DNA from: a phage
Sequence record: NC_103192.1
DNA: 64,000 bases
Strand: one strand, 5' to 3'
Of this stretch, positions 12,683-57,721 are shown piece after piece. Position 1 is the first letter of the stretch, and the number at the start of each line of letters is the position of its first letter. The position numbers and the translations under genes were made by a program. Below the pieces are notes generated by a model. That model was not told the DNA's origin, did no database searches, and was given only the letters and a program-made list of their open reading frames with translations.

Positions 12683-12942
12683 GCAAGGTTGTTGTGAGGG
12701 CCAGTGAGTGGGCAGCCAAGAACAGTTCACTTAACTGGTTCGACTTTCTTTGGTGCAGGGTGCTCAAGAATTTCAAAGGGGAAAATTTTGAATCGCTAAA
12801 TCTTGCAGATATGGCGTATTTCCTGAAGCTCTGTGAGTATCTTGATATCGAAGAATTCCTAGATACCGTCCAAAACAGGGAAATGGAGCGGGAGCAGAAG
12901 GCTGCCGCAGCTGCTGCGAAAGCTAAGCGCAGGAGAGGATAA
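12209..12942 (+). CDS. tail assembly chaperone GT-like frameshift fusion (join 12209..12583, 12583..12942)
   Basis: predicted 244-aa product by -1 slip at 12577-12583; downstream part ends in Ala/Lys-rich tail (QKAAAAAAKAKRRRG). Confidence 0.5.
12577..12583 (+). other. -1 programmed ribosomal frameshift slippery site T_TTT_TTC
   Basis: X_XXY_YYZ heptamer in the zero frame of the chaperone ORF; the -1 frame opens at 12568 (TAA at 12565-12567) and stays open to 12942. Confidence 0.6.
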
Positions 12943-12947
12943 TCTAA

Positions 12948-12985
12948 GGGCCGGATTCCTTTTCTGGGATCTGGCCCTTTTTATT
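12948..12985 (+). terminator. stem-loop with U-tract between chaperone and tape measure genes (possible attenuator)
   Basis: GGGCCGGAU/AUCUGGCCC 9-bp stem (one G-U), 12-nt loop, then TTTTTATT. Confidence 0.4.
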
Positions 12986-12996
12986 ATGAGGAAACC

Positions 12997-41263: not shown

Positions 41264-41272
41264 TATATCTGA

Positions 41273-41297
41273 CCGCTCCTGACGGGGCGGTTTTCTT
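41273..41297 (+). terminator. hairpin CCGCTCC-TGAC-GGGGCGG + TTTTCTT
   Basis: 7-bp stem (one G-U) read from sequence. Confidence 0.55.
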
Positions 41298-41311
41298 ATC
41301 TGGAGAACACA

Positions 41312-44300: not shown

Positions 44301-46945
44301 CCCTATCTATGCAAGTTCCAGTAACAAACGGGTACAAACGTGTTGTGATGATCATTAAGTGCGACTTAATAGGTAAGCAAGTTCTTGCAGAAAACGGAAC
44401 CTCAACACATCTATTCGAGACTGCTCTGCATTATCAGTTTGCTGATTCACCTTTTGCAGGGGATAAGAGAATATCTGATACAGACAATACTCGATGCAAG
44501 AAATTTATGCTTGGTGGTGGATGGTGGTGGTATGAATTTGATTTAACAGACAAATTCACTGACACGTCTAAAGTGGTGACAGGGCTTCGTCTAGATCTTG
44601 GCGAAAACATGCACAAAAGTGTTTGTGATGGCACCTACGGTGACCCAACAATCTACTTAAAGTATGTCTCTTTTGAGCATCCGGAAGATGTTGTTTACGG
44701 TCCAAAACTGAGATTGTTTGGCAGTTGGATTGCAAAAGACAGGGTAGGCATGGGTAAAAAGGTAAGAGGGTTCTTGGTTGATGCAGGAACAGAAGACATG
44801 CTGGTTAATGCAGTGTGGCCTGAATTACCTGGGACTCAGTGGGATAACTCAGCCAAGTCCATAAACTGGTTCAACATTCACAGAGCTATGTGGACAACTA
44901 ACTGCTACCTGTGGAAAGAGTTGAATGACGGCGCTTTCGGGTTTACAGGTGGCAGAAGAATGGCAATCATTTGCTGGACAACGCTGCAAAGATGTTATGA
45001 CCATGACTACGAGATTGGGGGTAGGGCATGGAAAAATATTAGGGATAGAATCATAACTAACTTCGCAGACCCTAATGGTGGTGGAGCGTATGGCTTCGAC
45101 TGCAGCAGGCTCATCCATTTGAACGGGTCCTCTGCATATAAGAAAGAGGGTTACTCTGGATCTATGATTGAGTGGGGCCTGGTGAAAGATGCTCGCGTAT
45201 TGATGGGTCAACAACTTGCTGCTGCAATAGGACCTAACGCAGTGCAGTCTGTTAAACCAGCGTGGTTCGATATCCCAATATGGTCATCTGGAACACCAGG
45301 AACTGCGGCAATCAACCCTACCACTGGGGATCTGGAAATCTCTTGGGAGGACTTGAAGCAGGTTGGTGGCTGGGATAAGACAGGCTACCAGGTACAATGG
45401 TGGAGATCTGACGGATCGTTAGCGGCTGATGAGTTTGTTAAGGACAATTTCTACACTATGTCCTCTGCAAAAGCACAGCAATTGTTTGGTCAGGCAACTC
45501 CGTCAACGATCACCATGTCCATGTGCTGTAAAGACAACAGGACTGGAGCCTTGGGACCGAGGGTTGCTAAAGTTTTCTCAGGTATTAAATGGAATCTCCC
45601 TGTTCAAAGTGTTTCATGGAAGCAAATAGGTGATAACAAGCTGCTGGTTACTCCTGCCTGTCAGTTCAACGCAACTCTTAACGTTGATCCTGCTGTTGCG
45701 GCAAACTCAGCTAAAGCTTCTGACTTCTCTGTGTCTAACACTGCTATGGCAGATGTGAGGAAGATTGACACACTGAACGCCAGAATTACCTGTAAAAACA
45801 CTTATGGCACATTCCAGATCATCAACAACTTCACAGATGCTGATTCTAAGGTAGTGAGGACAGCAAGCCAGACTATGCAGTTGGGCACTCTGGCATACTC
45901 TGCCCGGATCACTGAACAATCTCCTACTCTTCAGGGTGGGGGTGTTGGTAAGTTGATCACAACACCTGTGTGGAAGCCAAATGAGTGGGTTGTGTTTGAT
46001 TTGACTGTAGACTTCTCCAGTGACAATAACTGGACATGGGTAAGGAATTGCTTGTCACAGTTGATGGGTGGTCCAAGCTCTGTTAGTGATAGCCACGACT
46101 CTACTGACCCCAGCGTGTTCCAGGTTGGTAAAACTCACCCAGAGACGGGAGCAACGTTGCCTGACAGGAAGTATGCTTTGGTTTGCATCTCTTACGGAAA
46201 AGCAGATGTCACCTTCTCAGGGACGCACACTTATAACGGAACTTACAACTTCTCAAGGAAGTATAGTCTCAAGGCAGGTAACATTATAGATGAAGTTGGT
46301 GCGTTGTATAACCCAGGTAACGGCATAGGGATTGTGGGTGGTAAACTGCAGATGCAGGAACCTTCTATTACCCCTTCCAATGTGTCTGGGATTAGAAAGA
46401 CTTGGGAAAGCAGTAATACCAACATTGCAACAGTGGATGCCACCACAGGACTGGTAACATTTAAAGCTACTGGGAATGTCACCATAAAGTTTGTAGTTAC
46501 TGATGATGCAGGGCGCAAAACGTCTTCAACATCTTTTACTGTCAAACAGATGGCACCACAGTGGAGAATGTGGATAGGTACAGCAACAAACGGGGCATAC
46601 CCTAATCCGGCAGGTACTTCTGGTATGAAGACTTTCTCTACAAGCAAACCGATGGAGTACGGCAGCGGTCCTAAGGTAGGGCAGATGGTGTACTTTGGTG
46701 CGTATATTCCTGAAATTATAGGGCTTCCGAGAAGTCAGCTTCAGTTGCTGTTTGGGGCTGGTGTTGACGATCTTGCCACTTTCGGGTATAGCGACAACAT
46801 CGAGGCTGCAAGGAGTTCAGGATGGGTAGGGTTCAGAATGGAGTCTGGAAAGGAAGGCAGGATTCTAGGGACAGCCTCTATAGGTGTTATGTTCCCTGGT
46901 GACCAGCAGTATCGTCTGGGAGCCTACGCGACTTTCTCTCTTTAA
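41312..46945 (+). CDS. giant virion-associated protein (1877 aa) with possible N-terminal beta-propeller and C-terminal Big_2-like Ig domain
   Basis: single uninterrupted ORF with TGGAGAA RBS; N-terminal repeats resembling RCC1-type blades (LFDDGQLNITGYNKFGECRTGD; HLYGSGNNTYGSLHVD); Ig-like segment near residue 1700 (SNVSGIRKTWESSNTNIATVDATTGLVTFKATGNVTIKFVV). Confidence 0.6.
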   Translation: MLPIPLLKLGRHFLDKRGGVKELAVLSYPIDNSDGTSTTVAYVNSLAILFDDGQLNITGYNKFGECRTGDRNPINYPSETAWNVDHVWRADRAFVIRTFDNQFFYIGCTAGLIGSTAAGGNDVCVNEWTPLPEQIVQGLHLDTHPERLIEVMGGINNTVWVMAEAEGDGILHLYGSGNNTYGSLHVDKNQHATPVKIGETSENPETGPWKNPSINCEVHDNSVIFGGPRGFWIAGYDFLRNNSRNDLVWPPAQITRNDLKGIPADEEWKGFMCGPNGAVVATQRMHRPDDQQLVNVFYGQNVWGDDTWRALNITYTHEVIMARGYGTSGIFFNNGTKQYRGFSRNLCNDIGAQSANNNPRADFVHYQALATAKYVEQRLPVSWTESVYFQGIHREGFLGTFTVVNGKLWWSGIPRGSFAGSNNLFGGRLNSQGFTEVPENWYKNVPVDSWGVDDIFDVNGVSSVSNIYIGDTVKMKLKPQPEGATFIIDKIELVNAAGTVVTDANYQFSTNWNHGGANEVVVTQYNRNVNRRGLYSVKITYHDKHGTGRTHTTRNLNWNTIVPAYPSDGKWHTVGRNKQFHVNDTVYFGLNGTQPAVEGDTSYMVRLHRMDGGSVTYDVTQEIYDQRRNTYNNLVQTQAVWEFNPNGRGGKMLQVNEQNGTSLTVHEHPDPWPDPGKPHPGARTLKIVSHDAGYFGIRWEATVRYADGTTNNIGITLGGTSEDNSLKIAYTPRGISIDNMDVVRNGYGDVNIKVTLGEHLGGERIIMYAFDHDPRTDGTYADQAWSYLISAPEPNTKEFYYGMKRDVCKKTGTHDWIAICVKDERTAWDEPVNRWFIGIPTRSDKYVEEYIVCMGGTNLNMCWNEDANKYSDYDYMRDYSCNQWFNQTGYANRQSRVNPAIFTDTQVFLTKQANEVQTFKNKYDPNKWFYNCYGAFFWGPGELPNGGSCFEAATYASDRFMGQVKKYKIIPGPETLGNAVDPYIIMTALRSNMDGTSLSMQVPVTNGYKRVVMIIKCDLIGKQVLAENGTSTHLFETALHYQFADSPFAGDKRISDTDNTRCKKFMLGGGWWWYEFDLTDKFTDTSKVVTGLRLDLGENMHKSVCDGTYGDPTIYLKYVSFEHPEDVVYGPKLRLFGSWIAKDRVGMGKKVRGFLVDAGTEDMLVNAVWPELPGTQWDNSAKSINWFNIHRAMWTTNCYLWKELNDGAFGFTGGRRMAIICWTTLQRCYDHDYEIGGRAWKNIRDRIITNFADPNGGGAYGFDCSRLIHLNGSSAYKKEGYSGSMIEWGLVKDARVLMGQQLAAAIGPNAVQSVKPAWFDIPIWSSGTPGTAAINPTTGDLEISWEDLKQVGGWDKTGYQVQWWRSDGSLAADEFVKDNFYTMSSAKAQQLFGQATPSTITMSMCCKDNRTGALGPRVAKVFSGIKWNLPVQSVSWKQIGDNKLLVTPACQFNATLNVDPAVAANSAKASDFSVSNTAMADVRKIDTLNARITCKNTYGTFQIINNFTDADSKVVRTASQTMQLGTLAYSARITEQSPTLQGGGVGKLITTPVWKPNEWVVFDLTVDFSSDNNWTWVRNCLSQLMGGPSSVSDSHDSTDPSVFQVGKTHPETGATLPDRKYALVCISYGKADVTFSGTHTYNGTYNFSRKYSLKAGNIIDEVGALYNPGNGIGIVGGKLQMQEPSITPSNVSGIRKTWESSNTNIATVDATTGLVTFKATGNVTIKFVVTDDAGRKTSSTSFTVKQMAPQWRMWIGTATNGAYPNPAGTSGMKTFSTSKPMEYGSGPKVGQMVYFGAYIPEIIGLPRSQLQLLFGAGVDDLATFGYSDNIEAARSSGWVGFRMESGKEGRILGTASIGVMFPGDQQYRLGAYATFSL

Positions 46946-46952
46946 CAAGGGG

Positions 46953-46988
46953 TAAATAAAAAGGGGCCAAACGGCCCCTTTCTTTTTA
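46953..46988. terminator. bidirectional intrinsic terminator between convergent operons
   Basis: stem AGGGGCC-AAAC-GGCCCCT flanked by an A-run upstream and T-run downstream. Confidence 0.7.
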
Positions 46989-46991
46989 TAA

Positions 46992-47192
46992 TTAGTAGTA
47001 TTCCCAACACGACCCATCTTCAGACGGCTGGACACGCTTACCTTCATGATCGACATAGGTGTAACCACAGCCTTCACAAATAACAGGTGCTGCATAGCCT
47101 TCCTTCCACTGATCCTCAGTGATCAATCCTTTCAGATCTCCGCAGTCACTACCAAACAACTCTTCAGAACAGTCTTTACAAAAATCAGCCAT
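46992..47192 (-). CDS. small Cys-rich protein (zinc-ribbon-like)
   Basis: 66 aa with CxxC...C and CEGCGY motifs; GGAGA RBS. Confidence 0.45.
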   Translation of the reverse strand: MADFCKDCSEELFGSDCGDLKGLITEDQWKEGYAAPVICEGCGYTYVDHEGKRVQPSEDGSCWEYY

Positions 47193-47261
47193 CTCTATCA
47201 GTCTCCATATTTAACCAATCTATATTACATATTGCCGAAGAAACAGTATTTCATTTCATCA

Positions 47262-47480
47262 TCACAGATCTCCAACAACTTCCCAAATACCCCAGTGAGC
47301 ATCTATATCCTTGATAAAGTATCTTTCTCCACGGTTTGTCCACACACCTATCCCAACTTTACCATCTATCCCATTGTATACATCTGCCTCATACTCTTTG
47401 CCCGGTGTAAAGTGTACACCCATCATAAGGGCTGTTATTCCATTAGGATTTTTAAATTTAACAAATTTTACTTTGCTCAT
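47262..47480 (-). CDS. hypothetical protein
   Basis: 72 aa, AAGGA RBS, tightly packed with neighbours. Confidence 0.4.
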   Translation of the reverse strand: MSKVKFVKFKNPNGITALMMGVHFTPGKEYEADVYNGIDGKVGIGVWTNRGERYFIKDIDAHWGIWEVVGDL

Positions 47481-47481
47481 A

Positions 47482-47811
47482 TTACTTAATCCTTGCAGTT
47501 ACAGTAGCGCTATACCCTATGTAGTTATGAGACATAAAGAATGTAAGCCCTTTAAGTTCAGGATTCTTTCTAAGAAATCGTTTCAATTTTCGAATGCAAT
47601 TAACACCATGATCATAATTTGAGAAATTAAATTTAATACCCTGCTCCATCATAGTACACACTTCTTCATGGGTATGCCATTGTCTATCGTGGTCACAAAA
47701 CCAGTAACCAATACCTTCTTTTTCTTGGATATGCAATCCCCAAAATACTTTATGCATTGGATATTTTGGTTTTCTACCATGATAATGTAGTTTAATATTC
47801 ACATGTGCCAT
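47482..47811 (-). CDS. hypothetical His-rich protein
   Basis: 109 aa, GGAG RBS. Confidence 0.4.
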   Translation of the reverse strand: MAHVNIKLHYHGRKPKYPMHKVFWGLHIQEKEGIGYWFCDHDRQWHTHEEVCTMMEQGIKFNFSNYDHGVNCIRKLKRFLRKNPELKGLTFFMSHNYIGYSATVTARIK

Positions 47812-47844
47812 TTTTTGTTACTCCGTTCTGTATCTGTGATAATG

Positions 47845-47874
47845 AGAATAGCAAACTGGGGTGTGTGCTGTCAA
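47845..47874 (-). promoter_or_regulatory. internal promoter on minus strand TTGACA-18-TATTCT
   Basis: reverse complement of 47869-47874 is TTGACA; -10 is reverse complement of 47845-47850. Confidence 0.4.
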
Positions 47875-47979
47875 CAACATTTTTAAGCGTTTTGGGGAAG
47901 TTTTTTGAAAGGTGGGTGTAATCACAAGAGAGGGTGGAGTTGTTGAAGGCACAGGCCTCTTTTGAGGCCTTAAAATCGA

Positions 47980-48360
47980 TTATGACACTTTGACGTAGCG
48001 CTCTGACAGAGCTGGAAAGCCAAAAGCAGTACCTATACTACCGTATGCTACCCACCATTGAAGTTCATCGTGACACCATTTTCCGATCAGGAAGGTGCTG
48101 GGGTAGCGGGTCAGTATTTTGGCATAAGCTTTAGGATCTGCATCCTCTGGGATAATGATACTTGGAACATCTTTGTTATGACCACAGCAGCAGTTTAGAG
48201 TTTTCAATCCTGCCGCCCATAGACTCATGATAGGCTTAGCCATGCACTTATCAAGGCACACACGTTTTTTGCCGTCACGGAGCTTTTTAGGCACATCAAC
48301 GATAACATTTTGATGCTTGGCACCTTTCACTTTCCAATTATAGGATTTACACTTGCACAT
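47980..48360 (-). CDS. Cys-rich hypothetical protein
   Basis: 126 aa with CKCK...C.DKC...CCCGH motifs suggesting metal binding; GGAGA RBS. Confidence 0.45.
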   Translation of the reverse strand: MCKCKSYNWKVKGAKHQNVIVDVPKKLRDGKKRVCLDKCMAKPIMSLWAAGLKTLNCCCGHNKDVPSIIIPEDADPKAYAKILTRYPSTFLIGKWCHDELQWWVAYGSIGTAFGFPALSERYVKVS

Positions 48361-48518
48361 TTAATCAGTCTCCATCTAGAAAGCAATACTTTACTTAAAG
48401 TCTTTATCACCTGCCACGATTGCATGAATCCACTCATTGTGATGCTCAATAGCGGTGAGATGTAACATGATGTAGTGATCGTCATTGCCAAACATGATAT
48501 GATAGGCTTTGGCAGCAT
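48327..48518 (-). CDS. possible small ORF overlapping the previous gene's 5' end
   Basis: ATG with GGAAG RBS but 34-nt overlap and no recognisable features. Confidence 0.2.
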   Translation of the reverse strand: MLPKPIISCLAMTITTSCYISPLLSITMSGFMQSWQVIKTLSKVLLSRWRLIKCASVNPIIGK

Positions 48519-48566
48519 TTTGATATAACTTCCACATCAGGTAATGATATCTTCGCCTCATGGCTC

Positions 48567-49031
48567 TTACTCCGGTTCAGGATCTGGGTAATCTTCGATA
48601 ATAAAGGGCCATCCGTTCCGCTTAGCCGCAGACTTATACTCGATCTCCTTCATTGCAAACTCTAACTGATTCTTAGCCGGAATACATGCCGGAGAATCAT
48701 CAATCCAGATATCTGGGTAGATATCAAACTGCGCCAGATAGGCTGCCTTCTGGACACCACCAGTATAAAACACACCAACATCGAGATCCTTACGCCAATA
48801 CTCAATGTCTACATTATCTTGAGTAATGAATCGGAAAGTCACAAGGTATACTGTCCACCCTTCCTTTTTCAAGTCCCTAATCAGGCGGGAGAAGATGAAA
48901 GGACTCGCATTAAATGTTCCATCAAAGTCAATGGCAATGATGTGTGTGCCGTGGCGTGTCTCATATGGATTGCTTGTGGTAAGATTGCTGTAGTTAAAAG
49001 GAACTTCTTCCCCGCAGTAGCTGTAGTCCAT
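48567..49031 (-). CDS. HAD-superfamily phosphatase (nucleotidase-like)
   Basis: motif I IAIDFDGTF (DxDGT) and later WIDDS; ATG 49031 with GAAGGTG RBS (track start 49037 is GTG). Confidence 0.5.
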   Translation of the reverse strand: MDYSYCGEEVPFNYSNLTTSNPYETRHGTHIIAIDFDGTFNASPFIFSRLIRDLKKEGWTVYLVTFRFITQDNVDIEYWRKDLDVGVFYTGGVQKAAYLAQFDIYPDIWIDDSPACIPAKNQLEFAMKEIEYKSAAKRNGWPFIIEDYPDPEPE

Positions 49032-49033
49032 AT

Positions 49034-49309
49034 TCACACCTTCTCGTTGATAAATTTACGGGCGGTTTGGTGAGTTGTTTCTGCTGTCTTCAGAATGATA
49101 TTAATCTTATTGTCAAGATCATTCATCTCTGCAGTTAATTCAGGAATCTCTCCGGCATGCATAGTGAAATCATACATAGACATGCCCAGAATCTCATTGA
49201 TTCGGCGGTTGCATTCTGCAGCACGCTGGTTCATTTTCCAAGCTAACACCAGAGCCTCTTGCGTAGCCTCCAGTGCAAAGTCTAATACGTCAGCTTCTTC
49301 TTTCGTCAT
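49034..49309 (-). CDS. hypothetical small helical protein
   Basis: 91 aa. Confidence 0.4.
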   Translation of the reverse strand: MTKEEADVLDFALEATQEALVLAWKMNQRAAECNRRINEILGMSMYDFTMHAGEIPELTAEMNDLDNKINIILKTAETTHQTARKFINEKV

Positions 49310-49364
49310 CTCAGTCTCTCTTGTTGTATTGTTGGTAGGTGCATGAACACCTTATATCTCACTT

Positions 49365-49931
49365 TTATTCAAACTGCAATAGCAAGTCCACCACCGCACT
49401 AGGCCTGTCAACAAATTCCCCAGGCCCACATGCCCATAGAGGGTATCCATCAACATACCGCCATATCCAACCTGCAGTGTGAAGCTCAAGCAGGGCAGTG
49501 CCGTCCTTACTGTCAACCACCCTTTCCCACAGTGTTGGGCAGCGAAGCTTGAGAATCGGGTCCCCGCCCTTATACCCGTCCATGTAGATACCCATTGCAA
49601 AGTTCAGCATCATCTTTTTGTGCACTGATCTTTTACTGAGGGTGCTCATCACTTCCTCTTTGTGAATGTTTGTAAGCTTCTCTTTGGCTACCCGCAGATC
49701 ATTGCAACCATTGTTCAGCAGATCTTCCAGACACTTGATCCGAAGGTCGTGAATGTCTTTGTCGTGTACCGTTGGCACAGGGTCGTAGCGGTATAGCACT
49801 GTTGATACAAGGTTGCTCGGGTGTGGGTCTGACAGCAACCCATAACCCCAATACTCCTCTGTATCTGAAAGGACAAGACACCCAATGTCTCTGTCAAGCT
49901 TTCCTGTGTTGTAAGCCACATTGACCGCCAT
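49365..49931 (-). CDS. hypothetical protein
   Basis: 188 aa, GGAG RBS; no motif recognised. Confidence 0.45.
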   Translation of the reverse strand: MAVNVAYNTGKLDRDIGCLVLSDTEEYWGYGLLSDPHPSNLVSTVLYRYDPVPTVHDKDIHDLRIKCLEDLLNNGCNDLRVAKEKLTNIHKEEVMSTLSKRSVHKKMMLNFAMGIYMDGYKGGDPILKLRCPTLWERVVDSKDGTALLELHTAGWIWRYVDGYPLWACGPGEFVDRPSAVVDLLLQFE

Positions 49932-49933
49932 GA

Positions 49934-50179
49934 CTATAGCTCCACTAGCAAAGTGCTTTCAAAGTGCCGTTCATGCAAACCATTGTAAGGGACCACTTCT
50001 ACAACGCCATCACGGACATATGGGGCCATCATAGTGGTATAATCTCCAAACGGGTTGGTATTGTCACTAACCACAACCACCTTCTGCCCTTCCTTGGCAG
50101 AGTGCCAAATAGATCTGCACTTCATCAGGTGTTCGAGAGCTCCAGGTAAAATTTTGTTACGTTCTTTACGAGTCTTCAT
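49934..50179 (-). CDS. hypothetical protein
   Basis: 81 aa, AAGGAG RBS; start overlaps upstream stop (ATGA). Confidence 0.4.
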   Translation of the reverse strand: MKTRKERNKILPGALEHLMKCRSIWHSAKEGQKVVVVSDNTNPFGDYTTMMAPYVRDGVVEVVPYNGLHERHFESTLLVEL

Positions 50180-50625
50180 AACAGGTATAGCTCCTTATGA
50201 AAGTGATCTTTTAATTTCTCACTGAGAAACTTCTTGATACCTTCCTCTAAAGTGTTTTCGATGTAGTCCAGCTTAACTGCTTCGATGGACATATCATAGA
50301 TCGCCAGCTCTAAGCTGTCAAGTCCCATCATAGCATGAACCATAAGATTTTCATCTTCAGATACATTCAGGGGGCTTCCTATAACATCTGGAGGCAGAAT
50401 AGTTTCCCAATTATTCTGGGTGGTAGTTCTCCCTCCCTCTACTTTACGGCGCAGTTCGAATGTGTTCTTAGTGTAGAACACTTCATAAGAAACGATACGA
50501 CTGTCGCTCTCATAATAAACGAAGTTCAGGTAGGAGCCTAGCCGCAGTCGGCAAACTTCCACCCCAAACCATTGTTTCTTATAAGAATTCAGGCTAATGC
50601 TGTCGCATTCACGTTTGCTCAACAC
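50176..50625 (-). CDS. hypothetical protein
   Basis: 149 aa, GTG start with AAGGAGAG RBS. Confidence 0.4.
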   Translation of the reverse strand: MLSKRECDSISLNSYKKQWFGVEVCRLRLGSYLNFVYYESDSRIVSYEVFYTKNTFELRRKVEGGRTTTQNNWETILPPDVIGSPLNVSEDENLMVHAMMGLDSLELAIYDMSIEAVKLDYIENTLEEGIKKFLSEKLKDHFHKELYLL

Positions 50626-50641
50626 GGCTCTCTCCTTCTTG

Positions 50642-50875
50642 TTAATCTTCGTAAATAATGATTTCTGCTTTAGGTTTTCGTGCTTTCAGGTCCAGCTCTA
50701 TCCAGTGCACCATCGCTGTTTCAAGAAAAACAGCCTGGATGCATCCGTCTTCAGCGTGCCCTACCAGCATAACAAGATCTTCACATTCATCATCTGCATC
50801 ACGGACATACAAGATCTCTCCAGATTCAAAGTCTTTCACAACCTGATTGCTGGATAATTTACGAATTTTTGCCAT
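50642..50875 (-). CDS. hypothetical acidic protein
   Basis: 77 aa, GAGGG RBS. Confidence 0.4.
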   Translation of the reverse strand: MAKIRKLSSNQVVKDFESGEILYVRDADDECEDLVMLVGHAEDGCIQAVFLETAMVHWIELDLKARKPKAEIIIYED

Positions 50876-50876
50876 A

Positions 50877-51140
50877 TCAGAAACCCTCTAAAAAGCTCTT
50901 GTAGAAAATAATCTCAGTATCCACACCAGTCACGATCTTGTCGTTCCAGATTTCATCTGTAAGATAGGTGTCAAAACGCAGCACCTGTGTGGTATTGTCA
51001 CACATCCACTCGGCTGTGACCATGGCAAAAATCTTGGCATCTTCATTATCTGGTGTGAATGTTACCACCTCGCCGCACTTAAACTTTTCGATAGGTTGAG
51101 TGTTAGCTTTCGGTTCTGCGATAGTGATTTTCGTGGTCAT
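50877..51140 (-). CDS. hypothetical protein
   Basis: 87 aa; TAATG overlap with upstream gene. Confidence 0.4.
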   Translation of the reverse strand: MTTKITIAEPKANTQPIEKFKCGEVVTFTPDNEDAKIFAMVTAEWMCDNTTQVLRFDTYLTDEIWNDKIVTGVDTEIIFYKSFLEGF

Positions 51141-51397
51141 TACTCTTCCTCCATAGTTTCACCAAATACTTCGATACGAGCATCGAGCTCGGTTGCTTTC
51201 AGCTCACCAACAAAATCTTTTAGTTCTTTCTCGTCCAGATCGTAAGCCCACACACAAGAAGAACATGCAGATTTCACAATCAGCAGCGTAGATACACGAC
51301 CTGACTCCGTGATCATGCTCACAATGGTTCCTACAGGGAACGTGTTGATAGCTTTTTTAACTGGGCGTTCAGCTTTGATTACTACCTCTGTTGCCAT
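51140..51397 (-). CDS. hypothetical protein
   Basis: ATG at 51397 with GAGAGGA RBS preferred over track start 51406. Confidence 0.4.
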   Translation of the reverse strand: MATEVVIKAERPVKKAINTFPVGTIVSMITESGRVSTLLIVKSACSSCVWAYDLDEKELKDFVGELKATELDARIEVFGETMEEE

Positions 51398-51412
51398 AAA
51401 TAACATCCTCTC

Positions 51413-52873
51413 TTATTTAGCGTACCCGATCAATTCTACAGTTTTCCCAAAGCTTGGGATATAATTTTTATTATACCCTTCGGTGAGAACCCATAAAGTA
51501 TCGTACTTTTTCCACTTGTTGTCAACAACCTTTTGTTCAAAGTTGTGCTCAAAGTAGAGGTCGGTCAGGACGATGACATCTTTTGCATTTGGTATGTTAG
51601 CGTCCAGATACTCGAACACGCAAGCGGCTGTTGTGCCCCATGTTGAGTGGACCTCGTAGTTGATCATCTCGTCGATGTTCCCGCGAGTGTATACTTTAAC
51701 CTCTCCAACCTCAGTTGACCAACAGAACATCGTAACCTTGAACTCTTTATACAGATTGCACAACCCAGTGATCTCATTGAACATTTTCTTTAAAGTTCTT
51801 TGTGAGATCGATCCAGAAACGTCTAAAGCCACCACAATATCTATAGTGTTTTCCGGATTACGACCAGGAACAACAACGTGCTGATTCTTGTTTATAGCTC
51901 CAACTTTTCGCATTGTGCTGGTCAAAGACCCAGATCGGCGACCAGGTTTTCTGTAGGTTAGTTCAGCCTTTCGTTTAGACAGCATACGTTGCTTAATGAT
52001 GTCTATATAATTGATTACAGGCTTGCCTCTGTTTTTGACAAACTCGCGCACAGCCTCAGGGCAACGACCTCCGGAAGCTTGCATTGCTGCTTCCAACATG
52101 TCACCAGAGTCCTGCATGGCCTGATCTTTATCAGATTGACTGATCACGGGTTGTGGCTGATCATACCCCATAGCCTTTCCAAGATCGTCACTTGTGCCAC
52201 CGTTCCCACTCATGTGATCATCGGTTTGTCGTTTATCTCCTTGAGAGTTCTCGCCTTTACCGTTCTTACTTTTACCACTATTCTGATCTCTTTGCTTATC
52301 AAGAACTGCATAGACGTTCTCAGCAATCCATCCATGGAACCTCATGTCACAGTAGCAACTAGCTAAGAAGCCAAAAGGCTTACCTTTTACGAACGTAGTG
52401 CTTTTCCCCTTCGGAAAGAAAACACAAGGGGGCTTGCTAAAGTCAACCACAAGACCTGTGTTGATAACATGATCACAGGCAATATTGAACAGTTCCGGCT
52501 CAAAGCTTTTACCACGGACCAGATGATCGCAGATAATATGCCCCACTTCATGCGATAGAAGAAAGGCCACCTCTTTCACAGATTTGGGGGAATAGAAAAC
52601 CTCAGCCATCTCAAACTGCTCGTCAGTCAGAGATGCTTTAAGAATGGTTTTGCGCTCATCAGCCAGTCCCATAATGAACTCGGGACTGTAATAAATGCGT
52701 TTATGGTCTGTTGCCATGGTGGAGCACCATGTGTGGTTTTCTACGAACTGCAGCCCTGACAATAGTGTGCCATAAAACGGCAGTTTTTCAAGAAGATACA
52801 TGCGTGCTGCCTGCAGCATTCGCAAGGCGTCATCTTTTTGTGCGGCAATGATTTCTGAACTTCTGCTATCCAT
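51413..52873 (-). CDS. VWA-domain protein with N-terminal HExxH metallopeptidase-like domain
   Basis: zinc motif SHEVGHIICDH; C-terminal MIDAS-like VVALDVSGSIS; ATG 52873 with GGAG RBS (track start 52894 is TTG inside a hairpin). Confidence 0.6.
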   Translation of the reverse strand: MDSRSSEIIAAQKDDALRMLQAARMYLLEKLPFYGTLLSGLQFVENHTWCSTMATDHKRIYYSPEFIMGLADERKTILKASLTDEQFEMAEVFYSPKSVKEVAFLLSHEVGHIICDHLVRGKSFEPELFNIACDHVINTGLVVDFSKPPCVFFPKGKSTTFVKGKPFGFLASCYCDMRFHGWIAENVYAVLDKQRDQNSGKSKNGKGENSQGDKRQTDDHMSGNGGTSDDLGKAMGYDQPQPVISQSDKDQAMQDSGDMLEAAMQASGGRCPEAVREFVKNRGKPVINYIDIIKQRMLSKRKAELTYRKPGRRSGSLTSTMRKVGAINKNQHVVVPGRNPENTIDIVVALDVSGSISQRTLKKMFNEITGLCNLYKEFKVTMFCWSTEVGEVKVYTRGNIDEMINYEVHSTWGTTAACVFEYLDANIPNAKDVIVLTDLYFEHNFEQKVVDNKWKKYDTLWVLTEGYNKNYIPSFGKTVELIGYAK

Positions 52874-52885
52874 TAAAACTCCAGA

Positions 52886-52902
52886 AGGGGCCAACGGCCC
52901 CT
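52886..52902 (-). terminator. hairpin between minus-strand genes (partial terminator/processing site)
   Basis: AGGGGCC-AAC-GGCCCCT inverted repeat with U-run downstream on the minus strand. Confidence 0.35.
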
Positions 52903-52906
52903 GTCA

Positions 52907-53896
52907 TTATTTAACGTGCTTGAAAATACCAGCCAACTCGGTCATTGTCATGCGAGTGGTCTTCATAAGGTCTGTCATAGCCTTCTCCATAATTGGAGAT
53001 ACTACCATAAAGTTACCTTTGGTGAAACCTTTATTCCAGTCGGTCACTAATAACGGTTTAAGTCCTGCCCCGAAACGCTCACCAGTTAAAGCACAGCATT
53101 TTCGAATGTACGTGCTCTTAAATTGGCTGAATGACAGATCAACTTTCATACCTGCATCGTAGAACGTCTGGCAATAGAAAGTGTAGGCTTTAGCAATCTC
53201 AACATCGTCAGGCAGTGCAGGAACCTCTTCTGTAAGCCCTTCTTCGACCTTTTGAGGCTCTTTTTCCTCTTCGTGAGCCTGTTGCGTCATTTCTTCAATC
53301 TCTTCTGTTACAGGCTCATTTACGATGTCAGAAATGTGCTTGTTGGCTTCACGATTAGCCATGAAGTTTTTAAAATCCTGCATTGGTGACATATCTTCCT
53401 CCCATTCTTCGTCAAAGAGTGCCAGTTTATCCTCTTCCGTTCCATATTGCAAGATGAAATCTTCAAAAGTGTAATCACCTTTCAATTTCTCCATGCGCTC
53501 TTCGCTCAGGTGAAGCATCATCTGCTGGACAATTTTTCGATCAGTTTTGTCTTTAATCAAGACTGCGGTCTTTTTATCTACCAGACAGTCCTTCAGGGAG
53601 TTGCACCTTAACCCAACCACACAACAGTTATCAATTGCGTAAGGACCTTCATCATCTATCCGCTCTAAGGATGGATAGAAAGGATTGCCCAACCCGTTTT
53701 CATCTGTGTGCATGTCAAAAGGTATAAGGGTATAGTCGCACACCCCCTCTCCTAAAAGTTTTTTACCAAATAGGAGGTATTCTTCCCATGACAGGTTGAA
53801 CTCTATATCTCGTTTCCGTGCATTATTTTGTTTGCGTCTGTATTTTTTGAGCAGGCGCTCTAACTCTTCTGGTGTATAATATTTTTCAAGATTCAT
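52907..53896 (-). CDS. HNH-like nuclease-domain protein (two Cys-rich modules, acidic linker)
   Basis: segment GVCDYT...HTDENG...SLERIDDEGPYAIDNCCVVGLRCNSLK fits an HNH-like C...N...CxxCN..K pattern; second Cys module near C-terminus; ATG 53896 preferred (53962 is TTG without RBS). Confidence 0.4.
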   Translation of the reverse strand: MNLEKYYTPEELERLLKKYRRKQNNARKRDIEFNLSWEEYLLFGKKLLGEGVCDYTLIPFDMHTDENGLGNPFYPSLERIDDEGPYAIDNCCVVGLRCNSLKDCLVDKKTAVLIKDKTDRKIVQQMMLHLSEERMEKLKGDYTFEDFILQYGTEEDKLALFDEEWEEDMSPMQDFKNFMANREANKHISDIVNEPVTEEIEEMTQQAHEEEKEPQKVEEGLTEEVPALPDDVEIAKAYTFYCQTFYDAGMKVDLSFSQFKSTYIRKCCALTGERFGAGLKPLLVTDWNKGFTKGNFMVVSPIMEKAMTDLMKTTRMTMTELAGIFKHVK

Positions 53897-53927
53897 AAGT
53901 CGTCTCTTGTGCTTTGTAGGTGAAGAA

Positions 53928-53956
53928 ATCTTATCAAGTGCCTCAACAGATGTCAA
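53928..53956 (-). promoter_or_regulatory. leftward promoter TTGACA-17-TAAGAT
   Basis: -35 is reverse complement of 53951-53956, -10 is reverse complement of 53928-53933. Confidence 0.5.
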
Positions 53957-53969
53957 CCTCAAAAACGTG

Positions 53970-53998
53970 TTGACTTTACTCTAAATCCACGATATAGT
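53970..53998 (+). promoter_or_regulatory. rightward promoter TTGACT-17-TATAGT
   Basis: -35 at 53970-53975, -10 at 53993-53998. Confidence 0.5.
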
Positions 53999-54038: not shown

Positions 54039-54938
54039 ATGTCAAATCTTAACAGCTTTAGCACTCGGTGGAAACAAGATATCACAACCAATCTCTCAGC
54101 AGGGGATATCCTTTCTGCAATTTACGAGGCCTTGGATGATAAAGCTACTTCAAAATCGGTCTGTACCAACCCGCTAATTCCTATAGTAATGAAGGTGATT
54201 GAACGTAGGTTGGTATCCGGATCTGATAAGTGGACATATCTGGATAATGGAGGCCACACTTACTCCAACGGATATGTTGATATAAAAGTGGAATACGCAG
54301 TATCATATCGCCGGAGCGGCTCTGTAACTTTCAACTTCTCTGGTGGTTTCCGATCTCTGGCAACTTCACCTTTTGTTTCCTCAGAGGAGAAGTTTGAACT
54401 TCCGTTCCTTTGGATGATGGCTAACGCGACAGGCAAAACCCCTGTAAGCATTCGCGTAAAATACAACTACAACGGATCTAGTAAGATCTATGCCGAGAGT
54501 GTCTCAGCAAGTTTTTATTTTGTGATGGGAGATGGAATCCTCAAACATATAAAGATGTGTGATATGCATGATGTTATAAATGAAGTAACTGATAAGAATG
54601 TTCTAGTAAAAGACCTCAACAATTTTTATACACCTGGAGACTATTACGTCAACCGTCCACTGTGCATCTTTAATGCCGCACACCCTTTAGGTGAGTATTT
54701 GATCGCCAATAGCGATATTGCCAATAACCGCTTCGAGGTAGCAAGAGTACAGAATGAGGTGTTGACATCTTGCAAGAGTGGTGATAAGTTTACCGAAGAA
54801 GAGATGAGTGTTTTAGAAATGATGGGATATAAGTGTAGCCTTTGGGTAGATGAGGTGTTTAATGACGGCATCTATGGACAGGATATTTACCCGTTAAAGA
54901 AGTATACTGATTCCAGTTTAATTTACGCGGAGATTTGA
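54039..54938 (+). CDS. hypothetical protein
   Basis: 299 aa, first gene of the rightward operon. Confidence 0.45.
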   Translation: MSNLNSFSTRWKQDITTNLSAGDILSAIYEALDDKATSKSVCTNPLIPIVMKVIERRLVSGSDKWTYLDNGGHTYSNGYVDIKVEYAVSYRRSGSVTFNFSGGFRSLATSPFVSSEEKFELPFLWMMANATGKTPVSIRVKYNYNGSSKIYAESVSASFYFVMGDGILKHIKMCDMHDVINEVTDKNVLVKDLNNFYTPGDYYVNRPLCIFNAAHPLGEYLIANSDIANNRFEVARVQNEVLTSCKSGDKFTEEEMSVLEMMGYKCSLWVDEVFNDGIYGQDIYPLKKYTDSSLIYAEI

Positions 54939-54940
54939 CT

Positions 54941-55213
54941 ATGATGAAGTCATGTGGTAGTGTATATTATGTTGGTGAGGATGTTCAGGCAGATAGTGTG
55001 TGGAAATCCATTAAGTCCACCACCGACGATGCCTTCTTGAGCGGGTTATGTTTCCCCAATCCAGGAGACATTCTCCCTCACCCTGGAGATTTTGTTGTCA
55101 ACAAGACGGACGGTTATACCGTGTGCCTGATGGTTGAAAAAATCTTTTTAGACACTAGACACAATCACCGTCTTGTGCTAAAATTTCAAGAATGTAAAAT
55201 GACAGTTGCCTAA
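54941..55213 (+). CDS. hypothetical protein
   Basis: ATG 54941 with GGAGA RBS (track start 54935 is TTG). Confidence 0.35.
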   Translation: MMKSCGSVYYVGEDVQADSVWKSIKSTTDDAFLSGLCFPNPGDILPHPGDFVVNKTDGYTVCLMVEKIFLDTRHNHRLVLKFQECKMTVA

Positions 55214-55226
55214 GGAGGCCTTACCG

Positions 55227-55583
55227 ATGTCCAAAGTTACTTATCGTGCAGCTATTTACTGCAATGAACAACCAATCAATAATGACGGTCACTGCCTTTT
55301 TAAAGAAAATCAGTTGGGCTGTATTGTCCTCCCTGATGAAGGGGAAGGTTATCTGATTGCATTGACAGGGTTTGAGCCTGAAGCCTTGGAAGCCAATCTG
55401 GACTACCTGGTAGAGAAGGGTGCTGCAGACCTGGTTGCCAATGGCCTCTCCATAAGCCTTGAAGAAGTGGAGCGCTTCATGGGCAATTACCGTGTAGTGC
55501 GTGAGTTTACTGTCGAGGTGGAAACTCCAGAGTGGGGTAGCACTGAAACTAATGCTGAAGAAAAAGAAGAGGAGGTAGAATAA
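55227..55583 (+). CDS. hypothetical acidic protein
   Basis: ATG 55227, 8 nt after TAAGGAGG. Confidence 0.4.
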   Translation: MSKVTYRAAIYCNEQPINNDGHCLFKENQLGCIVLPDEGEGYLIALTGFEPEALEANLDYLVEKGAADLVANGLSISLEEVERFMGNYRVVREFTVEVETPEWGSTETNAEEKEEEVE

Positions 55584-55840
55584 TGAAAGTGCAAATCTTG
55601 ACTAATGCCGAGAAGATGTTTATCGAAGATACGCCTTTTGAAACTGGTGAGCTACAGTTTGTATATTTTGTTGACTTAGATAAGGTTTTTCCTGCGCTGA
55701 ATCTGGGTTTGGAGAAAGTACCTTATAAAACTCTATGCCAGGTTGTCCGTGCCTTAGCGGCAGATGGGGAGTTCCGCACCCTTGAAGATATCCAGACCTG
55801 TGGGTATCTTGAACTGCAACGAGAAGAAGAGGTGGACTGA
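55583..55840 (+). CDS. hypothetical protein
   Basis: 85 aa, GGAGG RBS, TAATG coupling. Confidence 0.4.
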   Translation: MKVQILTNAEKMFIEDTPFETGELQFVYFVDLDKVFPALNLGLEKVPYKTLCQVVRALAADGEFRTLEDIQTCGYLELQREEEVD

Positions 55841-55842
55841 TA

Positions 55843-56223
55843 ATGGCCCAGTGGAAGACAACAGTTGACCTTCATGATCAGTGGTTAGGACGCATCACCG
55901 AAGACGGGAAACTAGTGGAGTGGGACAACAAGCATGTTAGCGAGTTGGCAAGCATTGTGGCTGGTAAATTACGCTCCAAGTTCCCTGAACAACTGGATCC
56001 TGATAGTTCAAAGTTCGATCCTGAGTTGGAGGATGTTGTATACTACTTCGACACCGTTGATGACTACGACGCGTGGTTTGCAGCACGGGAGCTTTACCCA
56101 CAAGGCTCTGCTATGCGCCAGATGGAAGAAGATTATCCTCCGTGTGAGCAATTCAATAGTGCAATGACTTGCCTCTATGATTGGGCAGATAAGAACCTTG
56201 TCTGGATTCGGACTGCATTTTAG
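55843..56223 (+). CDS. hypothetical acidic protein
   Basis: 126 aa, GAGGTGG RBS. Confidence 0.4.
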   Translation: MAQWKTTVDLHDQWLGRITEDGKLVEWDNKHVSELASIVAGKLRSKFPEQLDPDSSKFDPELEDVVYYFDTVDDYDAWFAARELYPQGSAMRQMEEDYPPCEQFNSAMTCLYDWADKNLVWIRTAF

Positions 56224-56267
56224 TGGGCAGGAATGGCGGCAAGGATGCTGCTTAAGGAGTAGTAGAG

Positions 56268-56537
56268 ATGTTATACCAGCAATATGAACTTCGTGCAGAA
56301 AAAGAGTTAAATTTTGACAAAGATATTCACAGATATTATTATGGGAAAGTTAGAGGGCAAGCAAGAAAGTGTACTCCAACACTCTTTTATGCCAGCAGAC
56401 GACTAGCGCCAGAAGAGGCAACAGCAGAAAGGGTTGCATATGGCTGGAGAGTTGCGTATGATATTGACAGATCCGATGTGATGTCTGTTTTGGAAAACTT
56501 TGAAAACACTTACACACAAGTAGAGGACTTTTACTAA
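56268..56537 (+). CDS. hypothetical protein
   Basis: 89 aa, AAGGAG RBS. Confidence 0.4.
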   Translation: MLYQQYELRAEKELNFDKDIHRYYYGKVRGQARKCTPTLFYASRRLAPEEATAERVAYGWRVAYDIDRSDVMSVLENFENTYTQVEDFY

Positions 56538-57721
56538 TGTCAAGAAACGTATTCGAAAGTGGTCAAATCACTGTCCGCGAGTTGCCAGCTATTATTCAAT
56601 TTGCCCAGCGTCATAACCGATCTGTCCTGATTTTAGGACCGATGGGTGTGGGGAAGAGCCAGGTGATGAAGCAGATTGCTGATAATATGTTCGGTGAGCG
56701 AGATGACAACCTGGTTGACGTGCGGCTGTCAGATAAAGATCCTGCTGACTTGTCTGGACTACCTATCCCTGTAGAGGCAGATGGAACTACACGCACAGTG
56801 TTTGCAATTCCAGAATTTTGGCCTGCAGACTCGGACTGGAGCGGAATTATCTTTCTGGATGAGCTTACTCATGCAGATAACTACCTGCAGAAGGTTGCAA
56901 TGCAAATTATGCTCGACCACAAGTGCGGCACCTATGCATTTCCTAAGGGCTCTGTTTTTGTAGCTGCAGGTAACCGTTCTACAGATGGTACGGTTCTTTC
57001 GGCGCTCGAAGCTCCTCTGGCTAACCGCTTTATCATTGTAGAAGTTACAAGCAATGCAGAGGTGTTTATTGAGGACTATGCATTCCTTAATGGGGTGCAC
57101 TCCTCTGTAATTGGATATTTGAAAAGAGTTCCATCAGCTATTGATAATTATGAGGCTATGGCTGAGATTAATTGTCCATCTTTTGCCACACCGCGATCTT
57201 GGGTTGCTGCATCTGATATCTTGCACGATTTTGACAGCGGTATTATTTCTGACGCTATGGCCCGTGTTCTTCTGCAAGGTGCTATTGGTCACACTGCAGC
57301 GGTAGAGATCTGGACTTACCACACCAAGAAACGCAATTTACCGGAAATCGGTCGGATTATGGCAGGTGGCTGCAAAGAATACGTAGGTCCTAAGCAGCCA
57401 GACATTTTGTGGATTCTTGGATCTGAAGGTTGTATCGCTATTCGTAATATGATGGAAAATGCAAGTATCTCAGACGAAGATCTTGTCAGCTGCGTGGCAA
57501 ACTTCCTCGATTTCCTTTGGGAAAACTTCAAGGACGAGAACCGAGATTTTGTATTCTCAGTCTTTATGGCGATGATGAAACCTAATGCCTTAGGAAATGC
57601 CTTGCTTATCGGTAAAGGGCGTGACAAGATTGTTGCTCAGCTGATCAAAGCATACCCAAACCTGATGAAGATTGTAAAAGAGTTTGGTGAAGAGTTTAGC
57701 GCCATTTTGGCTAAAGCTTAA
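56537..57721 (+). CDS. MoxR-like AAA+ ATPase (AAA_5 type)
   Basis: Walker A LILGPMGVGKSQ, Walker B IIFLDELTHA, sensor-1 FVAAGNRS, Arg-finger region LEAPLANRF. Confidence 0.65.
   Translation: MSRNVFESGQITVRELPAIIQFAQRHNRSVLILGPMGVGKSQVMKQIADNMFGERDDNLVDVRLSDKDPADLSGLPIPVEADGTTRTVFAIPEFWPADSDWSGIIFLDELTHADNYLQKVAMQIMLDHKCGTYAFPKGSVFVAAGNRSTDGTVLSALEAPLANRFIIVEVTSNAEVFIEDYAFLNGVHSSVIGYLKRVPSAIDNYEAMAEINCPSFATPRSWVAASDILHDFDSGIISDAMARVLLQGAIGHTAAVEIWTYHTKKRNLPEIGRIMAGGCKEYVGPKQPDILWILGSEGCIAIRNMMENASISDEDLVSCVANFLDFLWENFKDENRDFVFSVFMAMMKPNALGNALLIGKGRDKIVAQLIKAYPNLMKIVKEFGEEFSAILAKA

Follow-up and report, generated by a model that had tools for sequence, protein, structure and literature searches.

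Genes 11-26 of phage rV5 were proposed to form a transcription unit by Kropinski et al. 2013 (PMC3606486), who also described bidirectional promoters lying between gene 10 and gene 11, a bidirectional terminator, and an Srd homolog, gp11. We analyzed the corresponding locus in a 64,000-nucleotide stretch of phage DNA (sequence record NC_103192.1; "the window" hereafter means this whole stretch), which comes from a Vequintavirus, an rV5-like E. coli myovirus, and shares about 95% nucleotide identity with more than 100 GenBank phages. According to the list of open reading frames (ORFs), 15 minus-strand genes, here called g1 to g15 in order of increasing position, occupy 46992-53896, flanked on one side by a bidirectional terminator and on the other by a divergent promoter hub of the sigma70 type. 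Their set and order are those of rV5 genes 11-26 and of bas54_0042-0056 in phage Bas54 (MaxBurger), at about 94-95% nucleotide identity, and these units likewise open with an Srd-like gene and have a divergent promoter hub and a bidirectional terminator. The region corresponds to rV5 genes 11-26 and is an rV5-like phage's leftward accessory transcription unit. An earlier examination of the letters alone, called the sequence-only reading below, had seen here a tightly packed leftward operon of about 15 genes and had proposed it as a candidate host-takeover or counter-defence locus, of the kind that holds fast-evolving inhibitors, where an undescribed system was likely to sit. What it observed was confirmed, down to coordinates, promoter, and hairpin, while its interpretation is partly supported; its novelty is low, since a 2013 publication on rV5 had covered the operon, promoter hub, terminator, and Srd homology, which rules out an undescribed locus. 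We consider it probable that the operon is a mosaic of dispensable functions, comprising an Srd-like protein (g15), one component (g14) of an anti-defence module formed with a MoxR-like ATPase, a HAD protein (g6), and a number of small proteins.

The 7.2 kb around the operon matched 121 phage records, nearly all Vequintavirus, at 90-99% nucleotide identity, and at least 80% of this region was covered in 113 of them. The same 15 minus-strand coding sequences are annotated in JohannBauhin (Bas53), FFH2, and SophiaRose, nearly all as 'hypothetical'. Compared with three relatives, all 15 genes were free of stops and frameshifts, with ratios of nonsynonymous to synonymous substitution rates (dN/dS) of 0-0.24, and for this reason they are real genes under purifying selection rather than chance ORFs. 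Nucleotide identity to JohannBauhin across the operon (0.92-0.97) equalled that of the head and tail genes, and most of the proteins were 97-100% identical in relatives, with g2, g4, g8, and g9 at about 100%. The identity profile and dN/dS thus reject a fast-evolving locus as a whole, and variation is limited to g5, g13, and the g3-g1 tail. The window represents a distinct isolate; in contrast to FV3 and DrSchubert, it carries the single-copy g13 allele, a g2 of the short form, and nothing additional between g4 and g3.

Beyond the genus, the genes part company. Among the neighborhoods of g14 homologs, those of Seunavirus and Mydovirus have at this position just four of the operon genes, g15, g14, g10, and g6, in the same order, with amino acid identities of about 40%, 44%, 25-28%, and 40-43%, respectively, and 50-53% for the ATPase on the divergent arm. 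In phage W70 and in Certrevirus, nothing but g14 (34-37%) and the ATPase (34-36%) is retained. About ten operon genes are confined to Vequintavirus in the neighborhoods examined, and distant homologs of g9 occur in other members of the subfamily. Because these phyletic ranges differ, the operon is not one system, and its genes, each with a history of its own, form a mosaic. The alternative in which all 15 genes make up a single integrated, undescribed host-takeover or counter-defence system, its members acting together, would account for the tight packing, the common promoter, the translational coupling, and the fact that 113 of 121 Vequintavirus genomes conserve the block in its entirety. We regard it as very improbable, however, as the phyletic patterns differ sharply (g14 in 727 records from several phage groups, g1 in 835 including other families, g3 in RB49-like phages), only four of the genes stay at the locus in Seunavirus and Mydovirus, transposon phenotypes vary from gene to gene, and gene content varies within the genus.

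The gene g14 (51413-52873; all operon genes are on the minus strand) encodes 486 amino acids with an HExxH metallopeptidase-like domain, a low-complexity linker, and a VWA domain, an arrangement resembling gp25 of coliphage N4. On Pfam domain scores it belongs to DUF2201_N (5.5e-28, 98.8 bits against a cutoff of 23.2) and DUF2201 (6.5e-11, 42.9 bits against a cutoff of 26.4), and both motifs expected of this family are intact, HEVGH at residues 108-112 and the metal ion-dependent adhesion site (MIDAS) DVSGS at 351-355. A sequence search of the PDB gave nothing significant for g14, and nothing was found in the literature on DUF2201 function. Its likely partner is a MoxR-like AAA+ ATPase encoded at 56537-57721 on the plus strand (Walker A at residues 34-41, Walker B at 104-109). 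This gene lies on the divergent arm 3.7 kb from g14, outside the operon coordinates given by the sequence-only reading. The JohannBauhin record annotates a 'MoxR ATPase' on its rightward arm.

The described counterparts of this pair are gp24 (AAA+ ATPase) and gp25 (vWFA / pfam13203) of coliphage N4, whose functions are listed as 'unknown', and the MoxR and vWA-metallopeptidase pair of group 2.2 jumbo phages. N4 gp25 and the jumbo-phage protein have the same two-domain order as g14, HExxH followed by VWA, and their partners are P-loop AAA+ ATPases of about 350-400 amino acids that co-occur with them in the same phage genera; g14 differs from them in its long low-complexity linker. In cells, MoxR-VWA pairs such as RavA-ViaA, CbbQ-CbbO, and NorQ-NorD likewise combine an AAA+ ATPase with a VWA/MIDAS adaptor and are thought to remodel a specific client. 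Unlike g14, the cellular VWA partners have no N-terminal HExxH domain, and unlike cellular MoxR proteins, the phage ATPase reached no MoxR threshold in Pfam with the models AAA_5, bpMoxR, and AAA_3 (AAA_5 16.8 bits against a cutoff of 22; bpMoxR 15.6 against 27).

We found homologs of g14 in 727 and homologs of the ATPase in 820 of about 50,700 phage records, with near-identical counts by genus. The two genes are not adjacent in the window, and in Vequintavirus, Seunavirus, and Mydovirus they are split onto divergent operons 3.7-5 kb apart, in contrast to the N4 and jumbo-phage pairs. Their homologs are adjacent in W70, PcCB7V, the N4-like ECBP1, EC.P1, Pantoea phage G19, and others, and they are co-directional in W70, PcCB7V, and ECBP1. 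In W70 and Certrevirus the ATPase gene lies a short way upstream of its g14 homolog, on one strand with it, at a distance of 80 nt in W70 and with one short ORF in between in PcCB7V. This near one-to-one co-occurrence, together with adjacency across distant phage families, makes it likely that g14 and the MoxR-like ATPase are partners with a joint function.

Experimental data on orthologs of these genes come from HIDEN-SEQ, a transposon sequencing (Tn-seq) study of Bas54 available as a preprint (bioRxiv 10.1101/2025.11.20.689424). Bas54 is 94.4% identical to the window, and its genes bas54_0042-0056 correspond to g1-g15. All 15 orthologs were non-essential on E. coli K-12, at a TA-site saturation of 0.79-1.0, and that of g2 was scored 'reduced fitness'. 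In Bas54 the whole operon is thus dispensable on K-12, as expected of accessory genes. The authors reported that bas54_0063, the MoxR ATPase, and bas54_0140 are needed against DS-28, a two-gene DefenseFinder system of E. coli CFE311, and they verified this with knockouts tested against cloned DS-28; the literature yielded no account of what the DS-28 components are. Between K-12 and CFE311, the log2 fold change was -7.23 (q 0) for the MoxR ATPase, -2.20 (q 0.009) for the g14 ortholog bas54_0055, -2.28 (p 0.028, q 0.195) for the g10 ortholog bas54_0051, and -1.32, which was not significant, for the g11 ortholog. The depletion of g14 and g10, which the authors did not discuss, is not a simple polar effect, because the orthologs of g12 and g13 lying between them were unaffected (+0.33 and +0.46). 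Co-depletion and conserved pairing together suggest, with moderate confidence on our part, that g14 and perhaps g10 contribute alongside the ATPase.

These results bear directly on the function previously suggested for such pairs. Iyer et al. 2021 proposed that the jumbo-phage pair takes part in virion assembly, by analogy with Acidianus two-tailed virus, and the ATPase and g14 could accordingly be an assembly chaperone and a processing protease, leaving the operon unrelated to counter-defence. The 'tail protein' label given to g10 in PHROGs and RefSeq, and the position of the operon next to tail-fibre genes, would agree with this. We nevertheless think such a role improbable. Both genes accept transposon insertions at 94% of TA sites on K-12, where most head, tail, and baseplate genes are essential; the ATPase is essential only in the host with DS-28, and cloned DS-28 reproduces the effect; N4-like phages place the pair with nucleotide-metabolism and rII genes and not with structural genes; and the 'tail protein' label (phrog_6790, RefSeq) could be traced to no evidence. 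The Tn-seq data thus argue against an assembly role and for a counter-defence role of the ATPase.

A possible third member of the module is g10 (149 amino acids, 50176-50625). Its homologs in SPLA5a and VIK251, of Seunavirus and Mydovirus, lie directly downstream of g14 at 25-28% identity. In W70 and PcCB7V a gene of similar size is similarly placed; hhalign aligned it with g10 end to end at a probability of only 40%, and BLASTP gave no alignment of g10 with the W70 gene. An exhaustive phmmer search with g10 over 1.8 billion representatives returned one true relative, and a word-indexed search almost only proteins at least 96% identical.

In the mechanism that we would propose, g14 works with the MoxR-like ATPase encoded on the other arm, perhaps also with g10: the VWA domain would capture a target, the ATPase would remodel it, and the HExxH domain would cleave it, and at least one role of the module would be to neutralize DS-28. 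That the ATPase is required against DS-28 has been shown experimentally in the ortholog bas54_0063, and a part played by g14 and g10 is inferred from their co-depletion and from adjacency that is conserved. The complete proposal, an ATP-driven capture, remodelling, and cleavage machine that inactivates DS-28, the module being a general protease-type counter-defence and not an assembly chaperone, is tentative.

Several points weigh against this account. The 4.6-fold depletion of g14 is far below the complete depletion of the ATPase, and the only anti-DS-28 genes named by the authors are bas54_0063 and bas54_0140. The depletion of g10 fails correction for multiple tests (q 0.195), and its homology to the W70/PcCB7V gene is inconclusive. 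CFE311 holds other defences, so that the g14 phenotype may not concern DS-28, and the data are those of a preprint. In its Extended Data Table 8, the sheet Data S6 'resampling_K-12_vs_CFE303' has the same console line (311 wig file) and the same numbers as the CFE311 sheet S7; the CFE303 results are apparently missing from the supplement, which makes CFE311 the one clinical host that can be evaluated. The MoxR name of the ATPase derives from GenBank annotators and sub-threshold Pfam matches, and its PDB matches are confined to the Clp P-loop region. Early timing of expression, finally, is deduced from the promoter sequence only.

Such points leave some room for another explanation, in which the operon holds miscellaneous dispensable genes whose host-specific fitness effects, by nucleotide-pool tuning or RNA turnover for example, have nothing to do with immunity, and the depletion of g14 is independent of MoxR and DS-28. 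A profile hidden Markov model search against the defence families of PADLOC-DB 2.0, as the sequence-only reading had recommended, matched no ORF, apart from one chance-level SAVED match with an E value of 0.016. In CFE311 the g15 ortholog was without phenotype and the g14 effect was modest, this host differs from K-12 in many respects, and tail-fibre genes and a helicase are also conditionally essential in it; the position of g6 next to a MazG-like gene in relatives would suggest nucleotide metabolism. We judge this explanation unlikely, if less so than an assembly role, because it would leave aside the near one-to-one co-occurrence of g14 and the ATPase, their adjacency across distant phage families, and the depletion of both in the same host. 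In summary, we prefer the mosaic with a g14-ATPase module. A host-takeover or counter-defence character of the locus stands insofar as it is based on the Srd homolog g15, dispensability on K-12, and g14 depletion, and it falls insofar as it implied one system.

The first gene of the operon, g15 (329 amino acids, 52907-53896), encodes a T4 Srd-like protein in which a degenerate HNH-like N-terminal domain is followed by an acidic linker and, probably, by a repeat of that domain. It matched phrog_4592 (2.6e-14) and phrog_1400 (5.7e-12), the labels among its PHROG matches including 'decoy of host sigma70' and 'Srd anti-sigma factor', and it also matched PHROGs of HNH/EndoVII type. In BLASTP against T4 Srd, residues 8-143 aligned with an E value of 1e-7 (24% identity over 143 amino acids), and residues 253-299 aligned with the same Srd segment at 2e-4. 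Thus, g15 belongs to the T4 Srd family by sequence homology of its N-terminal domain, which contains 14 of 27 invariant columns; R29, F33, C53, Y55, E78-R79-x-D81, N90, and N99 are shared with Srd. Because both halves align to the Srd N-terminal domain, a tandem domain duplication around the acidic linker is suggested, while BLASTP of the two halves of g15 against each other showed no direct self-similarity. In comparison with T4 Srd (248 amino acids), g15 is longer and has the acidic linker and the probable second domain copy, and the C-terminal half of Srd is not conserved in it. No Pfam match was obtained for g15, and a sequence search of the PDB gave nothing significant.

An active HNH or endonuclease VII nuclease was considered for g15 and rejected, for the HNH positions have no His, one Cys is conserved, and no alignment to T4 endonuclease VII was obtained. 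Since the invariant residues shared with Srd include no His and only one Cys, g15 is, as judged from its residues, a catalytically dead HNH-like protein. T4 Srd, which older annotations call an 'anti-sigma decoy', binds RNase E through the latter's N-terminal half and thereby makes host RNA decay faster (Qi et al. 2015, as cited in PMC13232886). By analogy, g15 would most likely bind a host nucleic-acid enzyme and redirect host RNA metabolism, a host-takeover role like that of Srd. Srd and g15 are both non-essential and both located among small non-structural genes. On the other side, the likeness covers a single domain at 24% identity, and the g15 ortholog had no Tn-seq phenotype in either host (log2 fold change of -0.08 in CFE311).

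The third protein with a recognizable fold is g6 (156 amino acids, 48567-49037), a probable capless (C0) phosphatase of the HAD superfamily. The four HAD motifs occur in order as D37-F-D39-x-T41, T67, K97, and D113-D114, and they are invariant down to 43% identity; neither Pfam HAD models nor PDB chains, the latter searched with the single sequence and with a profile, gave a significant match. Capless HADs such as the phosphatase domain of T4 Pnkp and the KDN-9-P/KdsC-type enzymes have the same four motifs in order, carried by a minimal Rossmann-like core that lacks a cap insertion, and g6 may have such a core. Unlike T4 Pnkp, g6 has no kinase domain, so that its label 'polynucleotide kinase' in SophiaRose is unsupported. 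It would act as a phosphatase on nucleotides or nucleic-acid ends. In Seunavirus and Mydovirus the g6 homolog directly follows a gene for a MazG-like pyrophosphatase, with overlapping stop and start codons (12600-13321 and 12530-13212 in the two loci); the homolog was left unannotated in the SPLA5a record, and the operon in the window has no MazG-like gene. The three folds named by the sequence-only reading, a HAD (probable) in g6, VWA/HExxH in g14, and HNH-like in g15, are as it described.

Product names of the orthologs conflict between GenBank and RefSeq records, and most are propagated errors. For example, g14 is variously an 'HNH endonuclease', 'anti-sigma factor', 'protease', or 'metallopeptidase', g10 a 'tail protein' or 'putative holin', and g6 a 'polynucleotide kinase' or 'haloacid dehydrogenase'. 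The RefSeq/PHROG label 'HNH endonuclease' on g14 and g15 is misleading. Our analysis corrects the labels 'HNH endonuclease', 'tail protein', 'polynucleotide kinase', and 'anti-sigma factor'.

In the ORF list, the 15 minus-strand ORFs fill 46992-53962, and within the window GC skew is negative only over 47-54 kb. The ORFs range from 56 to 486 amino acids, 13 of the 15 falling within 56-188. Three junctions overlap, by 4 nt (g10/g9 and g7/g6) or 1 nt (g13/g12); at six the genes are 1-6 nt apart, at five the spacing is 16, 30, 33, 55, and 69 nt, and 168 nt separate g4 from g3. Ribosome-binding sites of the GGAG/GAGG type precede nearly all starts, so the overlapping stops and starts and good ribosome-binding sites reported from the letters were borne out. 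The g15 start was placed at ATG 53896 by the position of the promoter, since a longer TTG ORF would begin upstream of it, and the g14 start at ATG 52873 on the basis of relatives, since a longer TTG ORF would begin inside a hairpin.

The promoter hub consists of a leftward sigma70-type promoter at 53928-53956 (minus strand, TTGACA-17-TAAGAT with an extended -10) and a rightward one at 53970-53998 (plus strand, TTGACT-17-TATAGT). The leftward promoter would drive the operon, presumably with unmodified host RNA polymerase. At 46960-46981, where g1 borders on the late tail-fibre gene, a hairpin rich in GC acts as an intrinsic terminator, read as bidirectional because A-runs and T-runs flank both of its sides. 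Two further GC-rich hairpins are found on the minus strand. The first, AGGGGCC-GUU-GGCCCCU at 52886-52902 in the g15-g14 spacer, is followed by the U-poor tail UCUGGAGUUUUA, which includes the g14 ribosome-binding site, and it is possibly an attenuator or an RNA 3'-end element. The second, AGGCCUC-AAAA-GAGGCCU at 47953-47970, comes directly after the g4 stop without a U-tract, in a spacer whose fold had a z score of -2.97. A candidate internal sigma70-type promoter for g3-g2-g1 follows at 47845-47874 (minus strand, TTGACA-18-TATTCT with TG; 10 of 12 matches in a consensus scan), and in FV3 an extra gene is inserted just downstream of this site. The hairpins after g15, g4, and g1 would thus punctuate the operon, with a possible internal promoter ahead of g3. 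The presence of a hairpin and a sigma70-like site in the g4-g3 gap indicates that there are perhaps two transcription units, g15-g4 and g3-g1, and the g3-g2-g1 tail may be a small unit of its own; the 15-gene block claimed earlier holds, and its being a single operon may not. An Rfam search of the operon matched no RNA family, and no Vequintavirus transcriptome was found in the literature.

Pfam, NCBIfam, and PADLOC searches yielded nothing for the 13 small ORFs. At the distal end, g1 (66 amino acids, 46992-47192, phrog_2210) is zinc-ribbon-like, with a CxxC...CxxC pattern and 6 Cys. It is widespread in virulent phages of enterobacteria, across unrelated families: tblastn gave matches in 835 phage records. 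Among these are Felixounavirus and T5-like phages, with 60-75% identity, in which it lies among tRNA genes and small ORFs (3001-3201 in both loci); in one T5-like phage it is inside the tRNA gene cluster. Such high conservation of so small a protein suggests a conserved host target. The ORFan g2 (72 amino acids, 47262-47480, phrog_30425) exists in long and short forms, FV3_25 (125 amino acids) being 86% identical over 72 amino acids and having a C-terminal extension. The His-rich g3 (109 amino acids, 47482-47811) is common to RB49-like T-even phages: tblastn matched 29 Vequintavirus records at 95% identity or more and 59 records below 80%, and the latter, among the matches listed, were all RB49-like phages of about 164 kb, 58-70% identical. 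Family libraries, and for g3 also the PDB, gave nothing significant for g3, g7, g11, and g12. The Cys-rich ORFan g4 (126 amino acids, 47980-48360) has 8 Cys, with C2, C4, H16, C39, and the CCCGH at 57-61 invariant; it and g1 are the two putative zinc binders that had been pointed out before. It shows 100% amino acid identity in three relatives, has few homologs, and matched neither Pfam nor the PDB, the latter by profile. An AlphaFold2 (AF2) model of g4 from a 10-sequence alignment had a predicted local distance difference test score (pLDDT) of 50.8 and was unusable.

The most divergent gene of the operon is the His-rich g5 (56 amino acids, 48391-48561), with 83% amino acid identity to relatives against 97-100% for its neighbors and a genus-wide spread of 60-100%. 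The ORFan g7 (91 amino acids, 49034-49309, phrog_12604) is probably mostly helical, with sub-threshold matches only, to spectrin-repeat and alanine-zipper models. The ORFan g8 (188 amino acids, 49365-49931, phrog_12232) is about 100% conserved in the genus, with dN close to 0, and had no match in Pfam, NCBIfam, PADLOC, or the PDB. Conservation of g9 (81 amino acids, 49934-50179, phrog_4868) extends beyond the genus, as tblastn found it in Cronobacter, Pectobacterium, and Klebsiella phages at 29-41% identity, reaching Certrevirus. The ORFans g11 (77 amino acids, 50642-50875, phrog_12046) and g12 (87 amino acids, 50877-51140, phrog_12861) follow, g12 with no Tn-seq phenotype. Two allele types of g13 (88 amino acids, 51140-51406) occur in the genus, making it a dimorphic cassette: 73 genomes have one copy at 95% identity or more, and 44 have only matches of about 40% identity, in two tandem copies in every one among the matches listed. 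Paralogy among g9, g11, g12, and g13 was rejected by all-against-all BLASTP, except for the g13 alleles. Altogether, 11 small proteins are without assignable function; g1 and g3 belong to small genes shared horizontally, and diversification is seen in g5 and g13.

Some observations concern the surroundings of the operon. It adjoins a gene for an 1877-amino-acid lateral tail fibre with an intimin/Ig domain. The tail-fibre regions at 24001-26000 and 40001-46000 are the parts of the window most divergent from JohannBauhin, more so than the operon: identity was 79% over an aligned fraction of 0.74 at 24-26 kb and about 90% at 40-46 kb. On the rightward arm, six genes lie between the hub and the ATPase (54039-56537, plus strand), five of them small ORFs and one a 299-amino-acid 'putative alpha-1,3-fucosyltransferase'. 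Pfam gave no match for any of the six and thus does not support the fucosyltransferase label, and all six are non-essential in Bas54. Further along, a DNA helicase at 61856-63226 (plus strand, bas54_0068) is dispensable on K-12 and depleted in CFE311 with a log2 fold change of -6.32 (q 0), comparable to the MoxR ATPase; no mention of it was found in the searched portion of the preprint's main text. Elsewhere in the window, a 540-amino-acid ORF at 10513-12135 (plus strand), between the tail-tube gene and the next structural gene, has repeated CxxC...CxxC zinc-ribbon-like modules and a Vsr-like 'ELDIYVPELKLAVEYNGAYWHS' segment. Only 0.23 of this stretch aligned to JohannBauhin, and a homing endonuclease has probably been inserted here.

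Taken by itself, the operon is unremarkable, an annotated and described accessory unit of a well-sampled genus, most of whose genes have no function assigned. What is useful here is the link, drawn by comparative genomics, between an anti-defence MoxR ATPase identified by Tn-seq and its likely conserved partner g14. As the possible missing partner of the anti-DS-28 ATPase, g14, with or without g10, is the one lead worth following. With Bas54 and cloned DS-28 available, the N4 gp24/gp25-type pair of N4-like, jumbo, and rV5-like phages becomes experimentally addressable. If the proposal is true, a long-unexplained pair that 700-800 of about 50,700 phage records contain would turn out to be a general means of counter-defence, of the protease type.

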